Shown: one piece after another, positions 33,760-49,873 of the stretch
Numbering within the stretch: the first letter of the stretch is position 1
Layout of the letters: every line of letters begins with the position of its first letter
IMG/VR virus record: IMGVR_UViG_3300045988_149625
DNA from: a virus
DNA length: 64,000 nt
Direction: 5' to 3' (one strand)
The notes under the pieces: model-generated
Databases searched by the model: none
What the model saw: the letters and a program-made list of their open reading frames with translations, nothing else
Told to the model about the DNA's origin: nothing
Program-made: the position numbers and the translations under genes

Positions 33760-34065
33760 ATGAGAGTAAACGGTGAAATATTTGCAAGGCATATCGCAAG
33801 GGTTAATAATGTTTCTATCAAAGAAGGTTGGCGTATCTATAAAGCTTTTATGACAGCTTTTTCAGAAACAGTGTCTGAGGGCTGCGACACTTTTGACTTT
33901 ATAAACTATTTTAGAATCGAGTTTAAAGCTTATAAGGCTAAGGGAATGGATTTAGTTCGCCAAGAAACTGTTGAAAGGCAGATTGTGCGTGGAAAGGTAA
34001 AGCCATATTCTAAATTACGTAAGCGCATTTTGGAGGCACAAAATGTATCACCAAAAGTATTTTAA
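33760..34065 (+). CDS. HU/IHF-like DNA-binding protein (putative)
   Basis: ~100 aa with a basic arm (...RQIVRGKVKPYSKLRKR...). Pattern similarity to HU only. Confidence 0.35.
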   Translation: MRVNGEIFARHIARVNNVSIKEGWRIYKAFMTAFSETVSEGCDTFDFINYFRIEFKAYKAKGMDLVRQETVERQIVRGKVKPYSKLRKRILEAQNVSPKVF

Positions 34066-35803
34066 ATTACATATTGTTCAAGAAGATACCTTAAATGACT
34101 TTTTAAATCTTTTTAAAAAAGCAAAGCAAGTCTTTTGGGACACTGAAACATCTGGGTTAAATGTACGTGCTGTAGGTAAAGATTATACAGTAGGCTTTAC
34201 GTATGCTTTTGATGATACTACATCTAAAGACGTTTTTTACGTTCCTGTAAGACATGTGTTCGAGGGAAAATATGAGGATAATGGCAGATTCTCTTTCTTG
34301 AAGAAATCACAGCTTGAAAAGTTTCCAGATTTTTGCCCAGAAAAATTTGAAGGAACTTATTATAATGTAGATTCTTTTAAGTTTGCAGCAGAGCTTAAAA
34401 CTATTATGGAGCGTGGCGGTAAAGAGTATATCGCACATAATCAAGATTATGATTTACATTTACTAGCTAATGAAGGAATTGATATTTATAAAGTCTTTGA
34501 CGTAAACACTTTTCAAGATACACAAATAATGGTGCATACACTAGATGAGAATGTAGAAAAGAATCTTGAAAGTGTTACTAAGATGATTTTTAAAGTTGAA
34601 AAGTCGCATTATAGTGATACCATTAAAACTGTTACTAAAGAAGAAAAGCTTTCACAGGGTTTAAAGGCTACTAATAATGCAAGCTTTCAGCATGTTCAAA
34701 TTCCAATAGGTGCACAGTATTCAGCAGAGGACGTTTGGTTTATGAAGCAAATGTATCCAATGCTTGAAAAAGGTTTAAAAGAAGATGATTCTTATGACAT
34801 ATATCTTAAATGCCGTATGCCTTTTATGAAAGCCCTTTGGAAAATGGAAAGAAAAGGTGTAAGTGTAGATATTGCTGCCCTGGATAAGATGCAGGAACTT
34901 GCGGAGAAAGAATTAGAAAACTCTAAATATAAAATGTTTTCTTTGGCAGGAGTGGAGTTCAATCCCGATAGTGGACAACATCTTTATGAAATCCTTTTTG
35001 GCTTTAAAAAGAAAGTTATGAGGCTTACTCCAAGCGCACAAAATGCTTTTGAAATGGAAAGTGCTGGATACACTACGACTGAAAAAACTAAGCTTAAAAA
35101 CTTGTATATGAATGAGCCGTCACATGTAATGTTCGTAGAATCTTGCAATAATAATTTAGTAGATGTAAACTTTGGCTTTAAACCAATAGAGTTTACAACA
35201 GGCGGTAAGTATGGCTATGAAGAGTTACAAACGCCGAAAACAGGTGGAGATATTTTAAAAGCATTGTTAAAGCAGAAAAATGTTGATGCAAAAGCGCATG
35301 ATTTTATTACAGAGCTTGTAACTTATAAAAAACTCTCTAAACTTATTAGTGCATTTATGATAGGGTTAAGAGAGAATATTTATAGTGATGGCAAAGTGCA
35401 TTGTAGCTTGAATTTAACAGGAACAGATTCGTGGCGAATTAGTAGTCAGATGCCGAATCTCCAGCAGCTACCGCACCCACTAGAAGAGCCGAAAGCGGGG
35501 GAAGATAGAACCTACTTTGATTTTTGGGAACGGTTTGAAATAAGAAAACTGTTTATAGCCGATGAAGGTTATAGTGTAATAGCTTGCGACTATCATGCTT
35601 TGGAGAAATACTTAACGGCGCATTTGTCACAAGATAAGATGCTTTTAAAGATGTTGAGGGAGAATTTAGACCCGCACGGTACAGTTGCAACTATCGTTTT
35701 TCCAGAACTTGCAAACATGAATCCAAATGACGTAAAGAAGCGTGAGCCTGCTAAAAGGCAAATTGCAAAAAAAATAGGCTTCGCTAAAGGTATGGTGAAG
35801 TAA
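34043..35803 (+). CDS. DNA polymerase I (family A), exon 1: 3'-5' exonuclease plus N-terminal polymerase domain through motif A and start of motif B
   Basis: Exo I VFWDTETSGL. Motif A CDYHALEKYLTAHLSQDKML (DYSQIELR-like). Start of motif B REPAKRQIAK... Frame closes at 35803 inside motif B. Confidence 0.75.
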   Translation: MYHQKYFKLHIVQEDTLNDFLNLFKKAKQVFWDTETSGLNVRAVGKDYTVGFTYAFDDTTSKDVFYVPVRHVFEGKYEDNGRFSFLKKSQLEKFPDFCPEKFEGTYYNVDSFKFAAELKTIMERGGKEYIAHNQDYDLHLLANEGIDIYKVFDVNTFQDTQIMVHTLDENVEKNLESVTKMIFKVEKSHYSDTIKTVTKEEKLSQGLKATNNASFQHVQIPIGAQYSAEDVWFMKQMYPMLEKGLKEDDSYDIYLKCRMPFMKALWKMERKGVSVDIAALDKMQELAEKELENSKYKMFSLAGVEFNPDSGQHLYEILFGFKKKVMRLTPSAQNAFEMESAGYTTTEKTKLKNLYMNEPSHVMFVESCNNNLVDVNFGFKPIEFTTGGKYGYEELQTPKTGGDILKALLKQKNVDAKAHDFITELVTYKKLSKLISAFMIGLRENIYSDGKVHCSLNLTGTDSWRISSQMPNLQQLPHPLEEPKAGEDRTYFDFWERFEIRKLFIADEGYSVIACDYHALEKYLTAHLSQDKMLLKMLRENLDPHGTVATIVFPELANMNPNDVKKREPAKRQIAKKIGFAKGMVK

Positions 35804-36199
35804 AATTCCTCTCATAACGGTGAAAGCCATTAAGATTGCCATAACTTAATGGTCAACGCCGTGCCGAACTTCTTTGTAAAAAGACGGTGTAACGACTTAT
35901 AATGTATCGCTATACTTTAAGTATAAATCTTACGAATACATTTAATGGGGAACATGAACTATGTAAGAAGTGCCATCAAAAAGAGCATCATGCAGTTACC
36001 TATTTACTTTGTGATTGCGATGGCAATGTATTACATACGTTGATTAGTAAAAAGAGTGTGTTAAAGTTTTTAAATAGCCTTGGTTACTTTCCTAAAGATA
36101 CAAGTGGTATTAGAGGGGTTATTAGAAATAAAACTAAAATATATGGTTTTTACTGGCAGCGAGTTCTAAAGGCATAGTCTGACACCAGTAGTAATACTG
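35804..36199 (+). mobile_element. group I intron (IA-like) interrupting DNA polymerase motif B; boundaries approximate
   Basis: R-like element gtgtaacgactt (35887-35898) and S-like element aaggcatagtctgaca (~36170-36185, AUAGUC) bracket an HNH-like ORF. The downstream exon frame encodes ILDNGLVDYGGTS (motif B NFGxxYG) upstream of any start codon, so an RNA-level join is needed. Confidence 0.5.
35902..36177 (+). CDS. intron-encoded HNH/AP2-like homing endonuclease (putative)
   Basis: 91 aa. CKKCHQKEHH...CDCDGN (Cys/His zinc-finger/HNH-like) and SGIRGV...KIYGFYW (AP2-like). Sits inside the pol intervening sequence. Confidence 0.4.
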   Translation: MYRYTLSINLTNTFNGEHELCKKCHQKEHHAVTYLLCDCDGNVLHTLISKKSVLKFLNSLGYFPKDTSGIRGVIRNKTKIYGFYWQRVLKA

Positions 36200-36724
36200 G
36201 ACAACGGACTGGTAGATTATGGCGGCACTTCTGTTGCGGTAAGTAAGAATTTGGATGTAGACCAAAAGACAGCACAGAAATACATTGACCGTTATTTTGA
36301 AGGTTTCTATGGTTTGCATACTTATGATAAAGCTGTAATACGTTTTGCACAGTCAAATGGGTTTGTAAAGACGCTTGGTGGACATAAAAGGCATTTATGG
36401 GATATTAACAGCAGTGATAAGAAAGTATCTTCTTACTTAGAGCGTGTTGCAGTAAATGTAATGAGCCAGGGTGCAGGTGGGGACGTAGCAATGTTTGCTA
36501 CATTAGATGTTGACCGCGACCCAGTGCTTAAAGCAATAGGTGCATACTTATTTTTAAATGTACACGATGAGTTAGGCTTAATGTGTCCAACTAAATACGT
36601 GGAGCTTGGAATGGAGCGTTTACAATATCATATGGAACATTGTTTACAGAACCGTGGAATTAATCTGACAATTCCTTTGGAGGCAGTCCCAGATTATGGG
36701 CATAGCTATTATGATGCAAAATAA
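36200..36724 (+). CDS. DNA polymerase I (family A), exon 2: rest of motif B through motif C
   Basis: ...DNGLVDYGGTSVAVSKNLDVDQKTAQKYIDRYF (compare E. coli [17 protein letters not shown]...EAQKYIDLYF). Motif C VHDELGL. The 5' boundary is a guess. Confidence 0.6.
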   Translation, partial: DNGLVDYGGTSVAVSKNLDVDQKTAQKYIDRYFEGFYGLHTYDKAVIRFAQSNGFVKTLGGHKRHLWDINSSDKKVSSYLERVAVNVMSQGAGGDVAMFATLDVDRDPVLKAIGAYLFLNVHDELGLMCPTKYVELGMERLQYHMEHCLQNRGINLTIPLEAVPDYGHSYYDAK

Positions 36725-36736
36725 GAGGTGAAAATA

Positions 36737-37798
36737 GTGGTAGAAATTGATAAATTAGTTAAAGATATTAATAAGAAGTTTGGTACAAATGCAATAAGAT
36801 TGGGACGAAATATTAGAGAGGATATGAATTTTAAAATCCCCTTAGGCAGTGTTGGTTTAAATGACGCATTGGGCGGTGGACTTCCGAGTGGGCGTTATAT
36901 CACACTTGCAGGGCAGGAAAGCAGCGGTAAAAGCTTACTTGCTTATAAAGCTATTGCTGCTGTGCAGAATCTGCGCAAAAAATTGGTTGGGGAAGGTGCA
37001 GATGCCTATGAGGTTGTTGCAGATGATGGTGACACTCCTTTAACCGCAGCACTTATTCAGCTTGAATGTGGTAGTTATTCCCCAGATTGGGGCGAAGTCC
37101 ACGGTATTGACAATGATAGATTAATATTTGTACAGCCAGAGGGTATGGAACAGGCTTTAGACCTTGCCTGTGCTCTCCAACGTGCTGGGGTTGAATTTAT
37201 TGTCATTGATAGTATTGCAGCAATGCTGCCTACTAAAGAGATTGAAACAGACCAAGAGGACACTGTACAAATGGGACTTAGGGCAAAGGCTTTAAATGTT
37301 TTTCATGGCAAGTTTCAAAGTATTAACAACTCCTTAGAAAGAAATGGTAAATTGCCTACTACTTTATTGGCAATTAATCAGTTACGTGAAAAGATTGGTG
37401 CTTATGGTAATCCATTGTACGCACCTGGGGGTAGTAGCCAAAAATTCACCAATGCTATTGAAATTCGTACACGTGTAGGTGATATTATTCGTGAGGGTAC
37501 TGGCGTAAACGCTAGAACCGTGGGAAGGATTATTAAGTGGAAGATTGAGAAAAATAAAACAGGTAAGGCTTTTAGTGACGGAGAATATGACCTTTATGTA
37601 GATGATGCACTACTTCCAAGAGGAAGCATTGATACAGGCAAAGAGTTGGTTATTCTTGCAATGTCTAAAGGCTTGATTGAGCGCCGTGGTGGTTGGTTCT
37701 ATTATAATGGTGAGCAGCTGGGGCAAGGACAGGACAATGTAGTTGCTAAATTAAGAGAGAACCAAGAACTGTTCATGGAGATTGTTGAGAAGTTATAG
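36737..37798 (+). CDS. RecA-like recombinase
   Basis: ALGGGLPSGRYITLAGQESSGKSLLA is the RecA P-loop context. GTG at 36737 with RBS AAGAGGTG; the ORF track uses GTG at 36728. Confidence 0.65.
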   Translation: MVEIDKLVKDINKKFGTNAIRLGRNIREDMNFKIPLGSVGLNDALGGGLPSGRYITLAGQESSGKSLLAYKAIAAVQNLRKKLVGEGADAYEVVADDGDTPLTAALIQLECGSYSPDWGEVHGIDNDRLIFVQPEGMEQALDLACALQRAGVEFIVIDSIAAMLPTKEIETDQEDTVQMGLRAKALNVFHGKFQSINNSLERNGKLPTTLLAINQLREKIGAYGNPLYAPGGSSQKFTNAIEIRTRVGDIIREGTGVNARTVGRIIKWKIEKNKTGKAFSDGEYDLYVDDALLPRGSIDTGKELVILAMSKGLIERRGGWFYYNGEQLGQGQDNVVAKLRENQELFMEIVEKL

Positions 37799-42980: not shown

Positions 42981-43328
42981 TTGTTAATTACCAATATTAA
43001 AATTTATGGACTAGAAGAATCCATTTATGCAAGTGGGTATCCAATGCTTTCAAAACCACCTACTAAAGAAGAGTTTGAGAGTGGGGTATCTGATGTAACA
43101 ACGAATATTTTTATGCGTGAAACTGTAGGAGCAAAAGCAGCAGGTGCACATATTAAAAGGGCTTTAAAGCTTGGCAGTGCAGCCGCAGGAACTGGGCACA
43201 ATAACTTTTTAAAGGGAATTATTGTGCAAATGGATGTTAATGCACCGCAGTATTGGTGGCAACAGGCACAGCGTTATCACTGGTTCGATTTCGTTAGCTC
43301 GAAGGGCGTTTTAGTAGGTAACTATTAA
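42981..43328 (+). CDS. ThyX-like (flavin-dependent thymidylate synthase fold) protein, exon 1; divergent (RHR motif replaced)
   Basis: ...GHNNFLKGIIVQMDVNAPQYWWQQAQRYHWFDFVSS... versus ThyX ...[35 protein letters not shown].... Frame closes just before an intron-like structured region. Confidence 0.35.
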   Translation: MLITNIKIYGLEESIYASGYPMLSKPPTKEEFESGVSDVTTNIFMRETVGAKAAGAHIKRALKLGSAAAGTGHNNFLKGIIVQMDVNAPQYWWQQAQRYHWFDFVSSKGVLVGNY

Positions 43329-43329
43329 A

Positions 43330-43685
43330 ATTATGAATTGGTGAACCTAGAAATCTAGGGTGTGCGACTTATGTCGTGCTAACGGTAAGAGTTAAATAAG
43401 ACTGGGAATATGACAATTATTCTCTTTAGCCATAGGCGAATACGCTCTCTAAGAGAAGCTAAGGACTTTCGTAAGTTAGCTTGCTAATACCGTGCTAAGT
43501 TTTTCTATTCTCATGTAATTTGAGAATAGATTAAAAAGTGTAACGACTAACCGAAGTATTAACATACTTCAAGAGGTTTAAGGTGAAATTCCTTATTCCG
43601 TAGCGCCAATTACCCTATAAGGGTAAAGAGATAGTCTAATCCCACTATTAAATTAGTGTTAAAGTACGCCGAAAGGCGGGGTAGA
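43330..43685 (+). mobile_element. ORF-less group I intron (IA-like); boundaries approximate
   Basis: R element gtgtaacgactaacc (P7 5'). P7.1 hairpin gaagtat-taac-atacttc. P8 hairpin taccct-ata-agggta. J8/7 plus P7 3' aagagatagtct (S element). P9-like cgcc-gaaa-ggcg (GNRA loop). About 330 bp without an ORF between two halves of one reading frame. Confidence 0.5.
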
Positions 43686-44000
43686 AATGCAATGAGTAAG
43701 GTACATTGCCTTACAAAAATGGATATTGACAGTATGTGTGACAGCACTGTAACGGAAACAGCGAAGCTCAATTTAGTTGGGGCAATTCAAGATTACACTG
43801 AGGGCAAGATTGACTTTGACACTATGATGTGTAATGTTCCTATGGGATTGCATTTAACTGCAAGAATGACAACAAATTATTTGCAGCTTAAAACGATGTA
43901 TGCACAAAGACAGCATCACAAATCTAAAGAGTGGCAGGAGTTCTGTAAGTGGGTAACATATTTACCTATGAGCTATTTAATTACAGGAGGTACTATGTAA
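43686..44000 (+). CDS. ThyX-like protein, exon 2 (putative)
   Basis: Frame open from 43635. Continues NAMSKVHCLTKMD...; exons 1 and 2 together give about 218 aa, a small-ThyX length. Confidence 0.3.
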   Translation, partial: NAMSKVHCLTKMDIDSMCDSTVTETAKLNLVGAIQDYTEGKIDFDTMMCNVPMGLHLTARMTTNYLQLKTMYAQRQHHKSKEWQEFCKWVTYLPMSYLITGGTM

Positions 44001-45017: not shown

Positions 45018-45614
45018 ATGACTAATATTATATGTATGAGTGGCGGTTATGACAGTACCGTACTTTATGATTATCTGAAAAAAGATGAACATTTAGATTT
45101 AAAGGTTTACCATGCGCTTTATACTAAAGTTGAAGGTGGCACATATAATTTAAATGAGTTTAAACGTCTTTCACAAAAGTTTAATAATGAAATAGATTAT
45201 TTAGCGCACTTTAACTTACATTTATTAGGTGAGGATTACATTCCGAACAGAAACACTCTATTTGTAATGGATATCATTGCAAAGCTTTATGTTGGAGAGC
45301 CTTTAAATATTTACCTGGGAATTATTAAGAATTTTCCTAGATACCCAGACTGTACACATGAATGGTTGGAGGCTCTTAATTCATTTTTAAGCATTGAATT
45401 TCCAAATGTTAAAGTTTTAGCACCCTTTATAGACCTTACAAAAGACGATGTTTTCAAGATTGGATGCAAGCTTGGCGTAAAATTAGAGGATACTTTTTCA
45501 TGTAACTTTTCTGATAATGGTGAGCCTTGCGGTGTTTGTGAGAATTGTAAATGGCGCGCAGCGCATATGTACCCTAGTTATTTTTTGAAGGAGGGGAATG
45601 AAATTGGCAAATAA
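45018..45614 (+). CDS. queC: QueC-like 7-cyano-7-deazaguanine synthase
   Basis: PP-loop ICMSGGYDST and a C-terminal Zn-binding Cys cluster (CNFSDNGEPCGVCENCKW). Confidence 0.6.
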   Translation: MTNIICMSGGYDSTVLYDYLKKDEHLDLKVYHALYTKVEGGTYNLNEFKRLSQKFNNEIDYLAHFNLHLLGEDYIPNRNTLFVMDIIAKLYVGEPLNIYLGIIKNFPRYPDCTHEWLEALNSFLSIEFPNVKVLAPFIDLTKDDVFKIGCKLGVKLEDTFSCNFSDNGEPCGVCENCKWRAAHMYPSYFLKEGNEIGK

Positions 45615-45822: not shown

Positions 45823-47717
45823 AAATGAAAGGTGATTTTACGCTTTTATTATCTGGTGTTGAGCCTAAGGAAAACTGGGAAGTAGCATCTTCTGTAACAA
45901 AGAATGTGCTACTTTCCTATAAGTATATTCGTAAACGTGGATTAGATGAAATTGTAAAGCGTTTAAAGTCCCATAGGGGAATGAAAGTTTTAATTGATAG
46001 TGGTGCTTATACATTCTTTAATGATAAAGAGTTTAATAATAAGACTATTGAATGGTGGGAAGATTATTTAGTAAAGTATATTAACTTTATACGTGAGTAC
46101 CGTGACTATATCTTTGCCTGCGTGGAACTAGATATTGATAGTATTGTTGGCGAGGATATTGTAGAAGGTTGGCGTGAAAAGTATTTCTACCCATTAGAAA
46201 GAGAAGGAATAAATGTTATTTATCTTTATCATTTAGATAAAGATTTATCGCATTTTGAAAAGCTTTGTAAGCAGCATCCTTATGTTGGATTTTCGTACAT
46301 GGAGATAAAGCATACTATTGAGGATATGGGGGAAAGAGAAAATCTCATTTCACAACTATTCCAAATAGCTAAAAGGTATAAATCTGCTATTCATGGTTTT
46401 GCAATTACAGGTAATAAGCTACTATTGAGTTATCCATTCTTTTCCGCAGATTCTACTACGTATTTAACAGGTGCGCAATTTGGTACAATTACCTACTTTG
46501 AAGCAGGTCAAATGAAGCATCTTGAAAAAACACAGTGGAAAACAGAATATATGGAAAAACTAAAGGCGTTGGGGTTAAAGGAGAAATTGCTTGAAATAGA
46601 ATCTCCTTATGAGCTTATAAGAGCAAATGCCATTAGCTATAAGAAATTTGAAGAATACGTTAAAAATGTTATGCGGCCACAAAAATATTGGGAAGCACGT
46701 TCAAACACTAAATACTCTATTCCAGATGCATCATGGTTTGAAGGGGATATGCAAGATTGGCAGGAACGCTTAGAACTAGCAGGAATTGATACAAACATTC
46801 CTCAAACAGCGGGTGAAACAATTTTACATGATGCTTATATTTTTCTAAATGAGCCTAAAGAAGCCAAGAATTATGAACTTGACGACCTTGTGGGTTTATG
46901 TGCAATGTTTGGTGCAACAGGTGCAAACTATAATACAAAAGATAAGTGTATAAAGTTTTTGCAGGAAGCTTTCAAAGAACATGTTGACGGTATGCGAAAC
47001 GAGTTGTCAAATTTGCAGAATCCAGAAGAGGGGCAGCGTATAGCACTTGAACGTGAGGACTATATTACAGAGAAAGAGTATTTAGAGGTTGAAATGAGTA
47101 GGGAAGAATGTGGAGAACTTCTACCTGCATTATTAACTTCTGGATATGATAAAGATGATGTTGAAAAATCTTTAATAGAACAAGGTATTAAACCAATCTA
47201 TGATAAAAATGGTAATATCTTAAAAGGTATCAAAAAGGTTAAGCGACAGAAAAAGCTTTCCACAAGGGCTTTGCCTAGACTTTCTTGTGATAGATGCGTA
47301 ATGGCAGCAAACTGTACAGAGTACCAAGCAGGATATATTTGTGCATACGATAAAATGTTCCGCAGATTTAACACCAGGGAACAAGAAGATGTTATACAGG
47401 GAATGACAGCTATTGCTGATTTAGCAATAGAACGTGCTCAAAAAGCCTTTATGCTTGAAACAGCTATGGGTGGGACACCTACAAAGGCTACTTCACAGGC
47501 AATGCAGGATGCTTTTGGATATTTAACTAAGTTAAAAGAATTGCAAGATGAAGTAAAAGGACGACCAGTTATGGTTTCACAAACAAAAATCAAGGGCGGC
47601 AGTATCGAACAAACTGTTGTTCATGGTGCTAATCCTCAATCTGGCGGCATTTTAGAGCGAATTTTTATGGAAGATACAGACGATGAAAAAACAGTAGAAG
47701 CGGAGGTAGTTAAATGA
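45807..47717 (+). CDS. DpdA/TGT-like (tRNA-guanine transglycosylase superfamily) protein, putative DNA 7-deazaguanine transglycosylase
   Basis: VLIDSGAYTF resembles TGT LTDSGGFQ. C-terminal Cys cluster (SCDRC...NC...C). Lies next to the QueC and QueE-like genes. 636 aa. Confidence 0.4.
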   Translation: MGAYLKMKGDFTLLLSGVEPKENWEVASSVTKNVLLSYKYIRKRGLDEIVKRLKSHRGMKVLIDSGAYTFFNDKEFNNKTIEWWEDYLVKYINFIREYRDYIFACVELDIDSIVGEDIVEGWREKYFYPLEREGINVIYLYHLDKDLSHFEKLCKQHPYVGFSYMEIKHTIEDMGERENLISQLFQIAKRYKSAIHGFAITGNKLLLSYPFFSADSTTYLTGAQFGTITYFEAGQMKHLEKTQWKTEYMEKLKALGLKEKLLEIESPYELIRANAISYKKFEEYVKNVMRPQKYWEARSNTKYSIPDASWFEGDMQDWQERLELAGIDTNIPQTAGETILHDAYIFLNEPKEAKNYELDDLVGLCAMFGATGANYNTKDKCIKFLQEAFKEHVDGMRNELSNLQNPEEGQRIALEREDYITEKEYLEVEMSREECGELLPALLTSGYDKDDVEKSLIEQGIKPIYDKNGNILKGIKKVKRQKKLSTRALPRLSCDRCVMAANCTEYQAGYICAYDKMFRRFNTREQEDVIQGMTAIADLAIERAQKAFMLETAMGGTPTKATSQAMQDAFGYLTKLKELQDEVKGRPVMVSQTKIKGGSIEQTVVHGANPQSGGILERIFMEDTDDEKTVEAEVVK

Positions 47718-49873
47718 GAAAATTAGCAAGTGTAGAAATTATAGATAAATTAGAGCCTATCCCAAATGCTGATAGAATTTTAAAAGCAACTGTAAAAGGT
47801 TGGGAATGTGTTGTAAGTAAGAGTGACAACTTTCAGCAAGGCGATAAAGTAGTGTATATTGAAGTAGATTCTGTTCTCCCTGCAAGACCAGAATTTGCCT
47901 TCCTTAAAGACAGAAAGTACCGCATTAAGACTATTAAGTTGCGTAAACAGATTTCACAAGGTTTGATTCTGCCTTTAAGTTACTTGCCAAACAAAGAATA
48001 CGCTGTTGGGGAAGATGTAACTAAAATATTGAATATTAAGAAATTTGACCCGCAGCTTGAAGCAGAGAATAAAATCATGGCAGTTGCTGCCCCAAAAGGA
48101 AGATTCACATTCTTATGGAAGCCTTTAATGCGTTTCCGTTGGTTTAGACGCTTATATGCAAAATTCCATGTACAGAATGAAAAGTTCCCTACTTACATTG
48201 CAAGCAAGACTGATGAAGAACGCTGGCAGAATATTACTGACAAGCTTGAACAATGGAGAGATACAAATGTCCCCCTGATTTGTACAGAGAAGGTCGACGG
48301 CTGCCATTCATACAGAAGTAGTGTAATTACAAATAAGGGGTTCTTGCCAATAGGTAAAATTGTAAATGAAAAACTTGATGTGGAAGTTCTTACTTATAAT
48401 GAAGAATCCAAATGTTGTGAGTTTAAACCTATTATAGATTATCATAAAATCTTATGTACAAAGCCTACATACCGCATTGGTGTAGGAAGTCGTGGTAAGG
48501 GAAATAAGCCTAAATATATTGAGTGTACCTCTAACCATGAATTTTTAACACAAGACGGCTGGAAGCAAGCGGATGAGCTTACTTTAGATGATACTCTAAT
48601 GCACTATTTTTCTGTTATTAACTATGATATTCAAAGTATTATCTTAGGCTGCTTACTAGGGGATAGCAGCATTAATGGCAATAGAAAAGGTACATCTTAC
48701 TTAACTGTACTGTTTGGGCACTCTGAAAAACAAGTAGAATATTTTAATTATAAGAAGCAGCTTTTTGGAAATCTTTTTATTGAACAAAAGGATACTTTAA
48801 GTGGATATGGCAGTGTAATTAAACATGGTATTTTACGTTCCAATGAGGGTGTTCGTAGACTTATTGAGGAGTATTGTTTGGTAGATGATAAATTTGCGGT
48901 AACACAAAAATATTGCGATGCTTTAACACCTATGTCATTGGCATTTTGGTATATGGACGACGGAAGCCTTTTAACAGGTACTTTACGACCAAAAGCAATT
49001 TTAAATACGCAAGCATATGATTTAAATACTATCAAAATGCTTGTAGAAACCTTACGTAACCGCTTTGGTTTAGAGGCATTTATTGGAGATAAAGAAGTTT
49101 ATAAAGGATACGTTATTTATTTCTCTGTGGAATCTACCCTTAAATTTGCACAATTAATTGCCCCCTATGTATGCGAAAGTATGAGATATAAATTACCAGA
49201 ACAGTATAGAAGTTATGGATGTGCTTTAAATAGTGTAAATACAGAAGTGCAAGATATTTTACCCACAAAAATTCTCTCCATTGAAGAGTTTGAAGCAGGT
49301 CATTTTGGCAAGCATATGTATGATTTAACTATTCAAGATAATCATAATTATTTTGTACATAGTATTTTAACTCATAATTGTTCCTCAACCTTCTTTTTAG
49401 ACGGCGGCACTTTTGGGGTTTGCAGTAGAAATATTTGGCTACGTAAGGAAGATAATTCGCCCTATTGGGAAATTGCAAGACGCTTTCAGATTGAGGAAGC
49501 TTTAAAGGAGATTCAAAAGTGCTTTGGTTTTAGAAAAATTGTTTTACAAGGTGAGATTATTGGGCAAAATATCCAAGCTAATAAATATAAGATTAGCGGG
49601 TATGATTTTTATGCCTATAATTTAATCCTTGACGGCATTAAAGTTTCACAAGTAAAAATGGAAGAGCTTCTTAAAGAATTTCGCATTAAAACAGTGCCTG
49701 TAGTTTATAAGCATATCAATGTGCCAAGTGACTTACAGACCTTAAACAATCTTGCGAGTGGTAAAAGTGTATTACTTGATACACAAGAGCGTGAAGGTAT
49801 CGTTTGCAGAAATTATGAGCAGGGGATTTCTTTTAAAGCGATTTCCCCAACTTTCTTGCTAAAAGAAGAATAA
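47714..49873 (+). CDS. RNA ligase (N-terminal tRNA-binding-like OB domain plus nucleotidyltransferase domain, Rnl5/DraRnl-like) interrupted by an intein
   Basis: N-terminus SVEII...PNADRIL...VGDKVVYIEVDSVLP is tRNA-binding-domain-like. Motif I TEKVDG is followed immediately by the intein Cys. C-extein has EGIVCRN (motif IV). Confidence 0.6.
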   Translation: MRKLASVEIIDKLEPIPNADRILKATVKGWECVVSKSDNFQQGDKVVYIEVDSVLPARPEFAFLKDRKYRIKTIKLRKQISQGLILPLSYLPNKEYAVGEDVTKILNIKKFDPQLEAENKIMAVAAPKGRFTFLWKPLMRFRWFRRLYAKFHVQNEKFPTYIASKTDEERWQNITDKLEQWRDTNVPLICTEKVDGCHSYRSSVITNKGFLPIGKIVNEKLDVEVLTYNEESKCCEFKPIIDYHKILCTKPTYRIGVGSRGKGNKPKYIECTSNHEFLTQDGWKQADELTLDDTLMHYFSVINYDIQSIILGCLLGDSSINGNRKGTSYLTVLFGHSEKQVEYFNYKKQLFGNLFIEQKDTLSGYGSVIKHGILRSNEGVRRLIEEYCLVDDKFAVTQKYCDALTPMSLAFWYMDDGSLLTGTLRPKAILNTQAYDLNTIKMLVETLRNRFGLEAFIGDKEVYKGYVIYFSVESTLKFAQLIAPYVCESMRYKLPEQYRSYGCALNSVNTEVQDILPTKILSIEEFEAGHFGKHMYDLTIQDNHNYFVHSILTHNCSSTFFLDGGTFGVCSRNIWLRKEDNSPYWEIARRFQIEEALKEIQKCFGFRKIVLQGEIIGQNIQANKYKISGYDFYAYNLILDGIKVSQVKMEELLKEFRIKTVPVVYKHINVPSDLQTLNNLASGKSVLLDTQEREGIVCRNYEQGISFKAISPTFLLKEE
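48302..49378 (+). mobile_element. intein (359 aa) with LAGLIDADG homing-endonuclease domain, inserted after ligase motif I (KVDG|C...HN|C)
   Basis: Starts at Cys197 right after KVDG and ends ...SILTHN before the +1 Cys. LAGLIDADG-type blocks ILGCLLGDSSI and LAFWYMDDGSL. In-frame, length is a multiple of 3. Confidence 0.7.

Follow-up and report, generated by a model that had tools for sequence, protein, structure and literature searches.

IMG/VR virus record IMGVR_UViG_3300045988_149625 is represented here by a stretch of 64,000 nucleotides (nt), referred to as the window, in which all long open reading frames (ORFs) lie on the + strand. Its family A DNA polymerase gene is in two parts (34043-35785 and 36212-36724) which are separated by an insertion of 426 nt at 35786-36211, a segment that an earlier, sequence-only annotation of this DNA (the first-pass annotation) had put at about 400 base pairs (bp). 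The ORF 34043-35803 (586 amino acids, aa) matches the Pfam domain DNA_pol_A_exo1 and then DNA_pol_A as far as position 216 of the 381 profile positions, and the frame 36188-36724 matches DNA_pol_A at profile positions 219-380. The two halves adjoin at profile positions 216 and 219, and the domain is continuous once they are joined. The insertion separates codons 763 and 764 of the polymerase (numbered as in E. coli Pol I) and falls within motif B, the O-helix, of which K758 and F762 are contributed by exon 1 and Y766 by exon 2. The first-pass annotation had already placed the split in motif B of a family A polymerase, and both the Pfam halves and intron-less alleles that read through the site bear this out. 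The three parts of the locus are:

34043-35785, + strand: polymerase exon 1, with the 3'-5' exonuclease domain and the N-terminal part of the polymerase domain, ending ...RQIAKKIGFA (Pfam DNA_pol_A_exo1 and DNA_pol_A to 216; collinear with intron-less alleles P0001-P0014)
35786-36211, + strand: group I intron, exactly the segment without a counterpart in allele L003 (covariation, minimum free energy (MFE) fold and sub-threshold matches to Rfam model RF00028)
36212-36724, + strand: polymerase exon 2, starting VDYGGTSVAVSKNL... and including Y766 of the O-helix, running to the stop codon (Pfam DNA_pol_A 219-380; collinear with intron-less alleles)

The ends of the insertion can be fixed exactly by comparison with uninterrupted relatives. 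A protein search finds 14 clusters of uninterrupted 751-aa polymerases that are 91-99% identical to the predicted spliced product and all read RQIAKKIGFAVDYGGTSVAV at the site. Intron-less alleles of 96-99% identity run through the site uninterrupted. At the DNA level, exon 1 plus exon 2 aligns with the intron-less allele L003 over 2256 nt at 96.85% identity with zero gaps, and the boundaries are unable to slide, since the exon bases next to the junction are unlike the terminal bases of the intron. The splice sites had first been proposed from the sequence, from the pairing of the P1 helix and the position of G36211 before GUAGAU, and were then compared with the intron-less alleles. The predicted ligated-exon junction is GGCUUCGCU|GUAGAUUAU, and the corresponding intron-less target site is GCAAAGAAGATTGGCTTCGCTGTAGATTATGGCGGC. 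The predicted spliced motif A-K-K-I-G-F-A|V-D-Y-G-G keeps the spacing of K758, F762 and Y766 intact, and its 12-residue spacing equals that of AKTINFLLVYGG in Bacillus phage BCD7, the closest isolate with 38.5% protein identity. A megablast search with the polymerase region against deposited phages gave no match.

These boundaries revise the exon ends given in the first-pass annotation. The tail KGMVK* which it assigned to exon 1 is translational read-through into the intron beyond the true end ...KKIGFA (35785), and the start ILDNGL which it assigned to exon 2 is in-frame translation of the 3' end of the intron ahead of the true start VDYGG (36212). The N, G and L of the supposedly essential NxGLxxYG are encoded by the intron, the real motif being K-K-I-G-F-A|V-D-Y-G-G as found in the intron-less alleles. 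Two other placements were rejected: a junction at 35781/36207, which would give AKKIGLLVDYGG, has no P1 pairing and conflicts with the intron-less alleles, and junctions that retain 'DNGL' would make the O-helix grow by 3-4 residues. Allele L003 differs from the window by three silent changes within 15 nt upstream of the insertion site (35767-35777) and is otherwise nearly identical in the surroundings; these changes may have arisen by co-conversion or may reflect variation of the target site.

Homologous introns at the same polymerase site were gathered from other assemblies (L004, L005, L011 and L013-L020). The introns of L005 and L015 are equal in length to that of the window, those of L011, L013 and L014 are 743 nt long with a ribozyme near-identical to the window's, and those of L004, L016, L017 and L018 are diverged variants. 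The introns of L019 and L020 interrupt a much more distant polymerase at the junction ...GNFA|KVYGQ.... The ribozyme part of the window intron is the same as that of L005 and at most one base different from the full-length introns of L011 and L014. Comparison of these introns yields a complete group I core made up of the following elements:

35778-35801, + strand: P1 hairpin, formed by GCUUCGCU (35778-35785), the 3'-terminal 8 nt of exon 1, and the guide GGUGAAGU (35794-35801)
35806-35811, + strand: P3 5' strand, UUCCUC, pairing with 35947-35952 (compensatory changes and MFE fold)
35817-35888, + strand: P4-P5-P6 domain, with P4 35817-22/35857-62, P5 35826-29 (and inward)/35850-53 and P6 35863-66/35885-88
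35892-35897, + strand: P7 5' strand, with A35892, bulged C35893 and GACU 35894-97, pairing with AGUCU 36176-36180
35902-35941, + strand: P7.1 outer stem, 35902-09/35933-41 with bulged A35935, surrounding the P7.2 hairpin and a conserved AAAUC
35947-35952, + strand: P3 3' strand, GGGGAA
35956-36166, + strand: P8 and its loop, GAACU 35956-60/AGUUC 36162-66, with a 201-nt loop holding what remains of an endonuclease gene
36185-36211, + strand: P9 hairpin and 3' tail, 36185-90/36195-200 with a GUAA loop, ending in the terminal G36211

The secondary structure is conserved and covaries. It was compared in a hand-built structural alignment of nine distinct intron variants whose host polymerases range down to ~65% identical, plus one more distant. 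In this alignment 99.1% of the 468 helix cells are paired and both sides have changed in 20 of the 52 pairs, with compensatory changes in P3, P5, P6, P7, P7.1, P8 and P9. None of 500 shuffled controls reaches the observed values for pairing or double changes, and sliding the partner strand by 1-3 columns leaves 31-39% of cells paired with 1-4 double changes. In P1, which contains U35785·G35794 at the 5' splice site, all eight pairs are kept in the nine variants, three via one-sided changes, and the stop codon UAA that ends the read-through frame lies at 35801-35803. A terminal G closes the intron in all nine variants (G36211 in the window).

Within the core, P3 has compensatory double changes in four of its six pairs and is paired in 100% of cells. 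The P4-P5-P6 domain, including P6a with its GUAA loop, is supported by a partial RF00028 match, by pair counts and by the MFE fold. P7 agrees with the Rfam core consensus AGACUA...UAGUCU; its closing A-U pair is replaced by G-C in three variants and the remaining four pairs are invariant. The two strings that the first-pass annotation had quoted as core elements are present as the P7 strands, gtgtaacgactt (35887-35898) as the 5' and catagtctgaca (36173-36184) as the 3' strand. P7.1 and P7.2 form an IA-type insertion between P7 and the P3 3' strand and contain three compensatory pairs, while compensatory changes affect four of the five pairs of P8 and five of the six of P9. The architecture is IA-like, with no recognisable P2, with P7.1/P7.2 present and with GNRA loops on P6a and P9. 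An MFE fold provides a check that is independent of the hand alignment. For the window ribozyme, with GAAA in place of the P8 loop, it recovers P1, P3, P4, P5, P6, P6a, P7.1, P7.2, P8 and P9. The registers agree with those of the alignment, no helix outside the pseudoknot is missed, and the z-score against shuffles is -4.24.

Alternative pairings for P3 were considered and rejected. A 3' strand inside the ORF (AGAGGGG, ~36112-36118, with P8 formed by UUAGAA/UUCUAA) varies without compensation in L005 and L011, in contrast to the four compensatory pairs at 35947-52. The register CUCAU/AUGGG is possible on the window alone, but its variable columns are unpaired and it is broken in L017. The MFE fold also contains a helix between 36174-36182 and 36204-36213 (AGUCUG/CGGACU), which joins the region of the P7 3' strand to the last intron bases and the first two of exon 2. 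This helix competes with P7; by eye it is possible in L004 and not in L016-L019.

The P8 loop of the sister alleles L011, L013, L014 and L004 contains a 177-aa ORF (3397-3930 in L013) with the motif HHKDHNRQNNKDTNLQVLCKKCHQKEH. It scores 21.4 bits with Pfam HNH, which equals the cut-off, and its best match among the PHROG families of HNH endonucleases has E=1e-13. It may belong to an HNH subfamily different from that of I-HmuI. The ribosome-binding site of the gene (GGGAGG in L004) is the P3 3' strand, its final seven codons overlap the P8 3' strand, J8/7 and the P7 3' strand, and its stop codon is the UAG of AUAGUC. In the window most of this gene is missing, and two features mark what is left:

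35902-36177, + strand: 91-aa ORF, of which residues 20-91 are an HNH C-terminal remnant and the first 19 codons are out-of-frame ribozyme (P7.1, P3 3' strand and P8)
35960-35966, + strand: deletion scar, with TATG microhomology at 35960-35963 and the ancestral ATG (35961-63) followed directly by TAA (35964-66)

Alignment of the 743-nt alleles L011, L013 and L014 with the 426-nt allele reveals a single deletion of 317 nt flanked by TATG, which is also present in L005 and L015. The window ORF aligns by BLASTP with residues 106-177 of the 177-aa protein of L004 at 81% identity and its UAG stop sits in the P7 3' strand. It keeps ...LCKKCHQKEH, but the HHKDxNRQNN part and residues 1-105 are gone, so that neither the first histidines nor the asparagines of the HNH motif remain and the whole N-terminal part is missing; no complete beta-beta-alpha-metal HNH motif is found. 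The 91-aa ORF has no significant Pfam or PHROG match. It had been described in the first-pass annotation as an HNH/AP2-like endonuclease ORF in the P7.1-P8 region. An AP2 domain is absent at E<=0.1 from both the 91-aa and the 177-aa ORF, and the element is a remnant of residues 106-177 of an HNH protein. The ORF does lie between the P7 strands as stated, but the ancestral ORF occupies the P8 loop and not P7.1. That there is an ORF of 91 aa at all is due solely to the chance in-frame position of an upstream ATG (35902), which begins the P7.1 stem and lacks a ribosome-binding site. The 72 retained residues form a separate C-terminal module, which we take to be a DNA-binding domain and which is missing from the shorter relatives in Escherichia phage Av-05, Pectobacterium phage CB7 and L019.

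Taken together, it is proposed, at a probability of roughly 90%, that 35786-36211 is a group I intron which must be spliced out to rebuild the O-helix and whose HNH gene has been mostly deleted. That RNA splicing is needed to restore the helix was also the conclusion of the first-pass annotation, with which the core structure and the exact exon junction agree; the splicing activity of the window intron itself is here inferred. Several observations weigh against this reading. The alignment was adjusted by hand to fit the model helices, and its pair counts are inflated towards them. P10, formed by the start of exon 2 with the P1 loop, measures 6-7 bp in L004 and L016-L019, and in L019 it covaries with the different exon 2 of that allele; in the window-type intron it is merely 3 bp long. 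No P2 helix was identified, which is unusual for subgroup IA2; the P1-P3 junction is AAAA. The synonymous to non-synonymous codon differences, 6:15 among deleted alleles and 16:14 among the full-length alleles L011, L013 and L014, suggest relaxed constraint on the remnant but are small in number. Finally, Rfam at gathering thresholds gives zero matches over the whole window. The Intron_gpI search suggested in the first-pass annotation yields, under permissive settings, two RF00028 matches of 20.9 bits (36031-36201) and 11.8 bits (35817-35897), both below the gathering score of 50 bits. The former is partly forced through ORF sequence and is convincing at J8/7, the P7 3' strand and P9 alone.

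The 11.8-bit match (model positions 60-147) is clean over P4-P5-P6, J6/7 and the P7 5' strand. Two features are likely to keep the scores low, namely the 201 nt of ORF remnant within the P8 loop and a P2 that is apparently missing. The homologous introns of L004 and L016-L019 give no Rfam match at E<=0.1, and the model therefore misses the whole intron lineage.

In the proposed mechanism the polymerase gene, belonging to a phage of ~100 kb, would be transcribed as one RNA. The guide at 35794-35801 would pair with the end of exon 1, and free guanosine would attack after U35785. The released exon 1 would then attack after the terminal G36211, joining ...AKKIGFA to VDYGG... and restoring a polymerase of 751 aa. 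Unspliced RNA would give the 586-aa product that ends at UAA 35801-35803 and is without Y766 and motif C. The ancestor is envisaged as a mobile intron spread by its HNH homing endonuclease, the 177-aa gene lying in the P8 loop with its ribosome-binding site in the P3 3' strand. A 317-nt deletion between two TATG repeats subsequently took out codons 1-105, the beginning of the catalytic HNH motif among them, and changed the reading frame. Judging from the sequence, the endonuclease activity has most likely been lost in the window allele, leaving an intron that has no means of its own to spread and probably still splices.

A different possibility is that the enzyme is a natural two-piece polymerase, its halves being separately translated and assembled afterwards, with the insert being an unspliced endonuclease cassette. 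Non-splicing splits of this kind are found in phages, and the split NrdA of Aeromonas phage Aeh1 has been described as a non-splicing two-piece enzyme (PMC7344957). The in-frame stop of exon 1 at 35801-35803, the presence of a TTG-initiated ORF at 36251-36724 and the sub-threshold Rfam scores would all fit such an arrangement. However, the split lies inside the O-helix, there is no start codon ahead of V764-D-Y766-G, and the TTG ORF starts 13 codons downstream. The insert also has a complete group I core with covariation, the ends of which coincide exactly with the exon junctions, and in the strongly paired variants P1 and P10 pair with the very exon ends which are joined in the uninterrupted allele. 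A two-piece polymerase is consequently judged highly improbable, and a spliced intron remains the preferred explanation.

The intron could also be genuine but dead for splicing in the window allele, owing to the P8-loop deletion and the weak P10, in which case the polymerase would be a pseudogene on a defective or dead-end genome. The 3 bp of P10 and the loss of 317 nt from within the intron speak for such a state, but the full-length alleles of the window intron type share the weak P10, the deletion is confined to the P8 loop with every helix intact, and the ribozyme part is, as described above, that of L005 and within one base of L011 and L014. Moreover, the precise 91-aa sequence of the window falls in a cluster comprising 116 distinct sequences, and a single variant in it occurs on 272 contigs of up to 110 kb. 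This abundance would be unexpected if the only replicative polymerase were lethally defective, and loss of splicing is regarded as very unlikely.

Having lost most of the endonuclease, the 91-aa remnant might still be expressed with a function, for example as a C-terminal domain that protects the homing site or helps splicing. Most of the 15 members listed from the 116-member cluster keep the frame open, yet gene callers report open frames alone and bias the cluster towards them. That the 72 retained residues form a module of their own, dispensed with in the shorter relatives, is also in favour of a function. On the other hand, the ancestral start now reads ATG TAA, and the sole upstream in-frame ATG (35902) opens the P7.1 stem without a ribosome-binding site. 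Decay is indicated by variants on 25 contigs in which W85 has become a stop codon (84 aa) and by substitutions within the residual CHQKEH, and non-synonymous changes predominate among the deleted alleles. A functional remnant is on balance doubtful in the extreme. In a specific version, the 72-residue module translated from ATG 35902 would bind the homing site and shield the genome from the intact endonuclease of co-infecting relatives, or would assist splicing, which is put forward as a long shot. Such a role would account for the deleted allele being about as common as the intact one, the 116-member remnant cluster being comparable to the 136-member full-length cluster. The full-length cluster also has truncated members (P0154 and P0158). 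Non-functional decay of the endonuclease gene within a splicing intron is preferred here.

The distribution of the alleles among metagenomic relatives bears on the history of the intron. Near-identical introns occur in polymerases that are ~65% identical (L013 and the window), and empty sites occur in polymerases 99% identical to that of the window, observations which fit spread by homing. Scans with the core pattern found few extra copies, two in IMG/VR and two in metagenome_contigs. The polymerase gene of related phages is a hotspot for mobile elements. It is truncated at the conserved points ...SSQMP before NLQQLP (the SPO1-type site 674, where relatives have another intron; P0060/P0061), ...NVMSQG (~850) and ...NIHD (~882), and some versions also contain inteins (PF14528 and PF14890). 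Besides P0060/P0061, the polymerases concerned are P0015/P0063/P0064, P0029/P0037/P0038 and P0028, P0033, P0035, P0039, P0062 and P0064. In L016 (1-4200) the polymerase is in four pieces with three ORFs between them, namely a 185-aa ORF without a family match, a 176-aa HNH ORF at the motif B site and a 203-aa LAGLIDADG_2 ORF. Between pol and recA, L004 (6014-7761) has a gene for a free-standing HTH-HNH endonuclease, and its RecA contains an intein with LAGLIDADG_2; in the window recA follows directly after pol and is uninterrupted (36724-37798). P0065 (579 aa) was considered as a neighbouring intron site and rejected, as a TGA replaces a Cys codon on a contig of 2x coverage and there is no intron. 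In L012 (2290-2300) the TGA for a Cys codon lies inside motif B (ISF*LDYGG) at 2x coverage; it may be a sequencing error or a nonsense allele and is not an intron.

The closest parallels among deposited phages are Escherichia phage Av-05 and Pectobacterium phage CB7 (Vequintavirinae), in which the same gene family is interrupted at the same position, 763|764, with the junction ...K-G-(V/I)-T-Y-G|I-M-Y-G-A-Q.... In Av-05 (junction ...KGITYG|IMYGAQ...) the insert scores 47.5 bits with RF00028, and the HNH protein has 33% identity to the full-length endonuclease. The predicted Av-05 junction is matched in one piece, over exactly 131 codons, by an uninterrupted homologue from a Klebsiella phage. 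CB7 has the same junction as Av-05, its HNH protein CB7_52 is 37% identical to the full-length endonuclease, and the intron containing CB7_52 has been reported to splice on the basis of reverse transcription PCR and Sanger sequencing (PMC7344957). The Av-05/CB7 and window-lineage endonucleases share N-terminal Cys pairs, FYKNGI and HHxDxxxxNN...LCxxCHxxEH. However, the host polymerases are very distant, the Av-05/CB7 endonucleases lack the C-terminal module of ~60 aa and the window gene is deleted. By eye the ribozymes also look different, the Vequintavirinae introns having extra 5' and 3' peripheral helices.

A similar split in motif B (...AKNVKYG/TYGAQ...) is found in the Pakpunavirus Pseudomonas phage vB_PaeM_C2-10_Ab02, whose 'DNA polymerase part I/part II' flank an insert of 38.1 bits with RF00028 and an endonuclease ORF. 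In contrast to the window lineage, the endonuclease here is of type VII, the splice site by our reading is one nt further downstream, and the annotation gives two polymerase parts instead of an intron. Group I introns in phage family A polymerase genes have been reported at site 674 (SPO1, SP82, Bastille and Pf-WMP3), 676 (phiL7) and 881 (PhiI and W31), the Pf-WMP3 intron as IA2 (PMC3428280). The introns of SPO1, SP82, Bastille and Pf-WMP3, with the nicking HNH endonucleases I-HmuI, I-HmuII, I-BasI and I-PfoP3I, likewise place an HNH-bearing intron in a conserved and functionally important polymerase region (PMC3428280), but at site 674 instead of 763|764. Position 763|764 is not among the sites of that list (PMC3428280) and is occupied in the deposited Av-05 and CB7 and, one nt away, in Ab02.

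The loss of an endonuclease from a persisting intron also has a precedent. The T4 nrdB intron carries a defunct I-TevIII that is intact in the longer intron of RB3, and it persists without mobility of its own as is proposed here (PMC1865063, PMC2790892). The T4 case concerns a different gene, nrdB, and another endonuclease architecture. The nrdB intron is mobilised in trans by a neighbouring free-standing endonuclease, MobE (PMC2790892). In contrast to T4, where MobE lies beside the intron gene, the window polymerase has no flanking free-standing endonuclease; its relative L004 has one, between pol and recA.

Elsewhere in the window, a second, ORF-less group I intron at ~43329-43690 scores 41.5 bits with RF00028 (E=4.5e-9, 43358-43657), below the 50-bit gathering score. 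The gene that it interrupts belongs to PHROG family 6721 (function unknown), with profile positions 10-98 in exon 1 and 89-215 in exon 2; the flanking ORFs 42981-43328 and 43656-44000 have no Pfam match in either half. The first-pass annotation had suggested that an intron had spread within the genome. This kinship was rejected, as the two introns share an 11-nt J6/7-P7 consensus only and their global alignment (z=1.7) is no better than that of shuffles. The ORF at 47714-49873 (719 aa) brings together an OB-fold domain (PHA02142) and an RNA ligase domain with an intein splicing domain and a LAGLIDADG_2 endonuclease. This RNA-ligase-like gene is thus interrupted by an intein, the third self-splicing element of the window. 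A QueC-like gene of queuosine biosynthesis (45018-45614) points to modification of the phage DNA with a 7-deazaguanine derivative.

For annotation, the polymerase ORFs should be joined as 34043-35785 plus 36212-36724 and the 91-aa ORF marked as a remnant. The interpretation given in the first-pass annotation is right in kind and wrong in several details. HNH group I introns in phage family A polymerase genes are a classic, well-known selfish element and no new mechanism is revealed. The finding has modest value as a snapshot, at the population level, of how homing elements are gained and decay. In metagenomes the element occurs side by side in three states: a site without the intron, an intron whose endonuclease gene is intact and an intron whose endonuclease gene is deleted. 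With its further introns at other sites and inteins in relatives, this polymerase gene is a convenient natural data set for the cycle of gain, decay and loss of homing elements.

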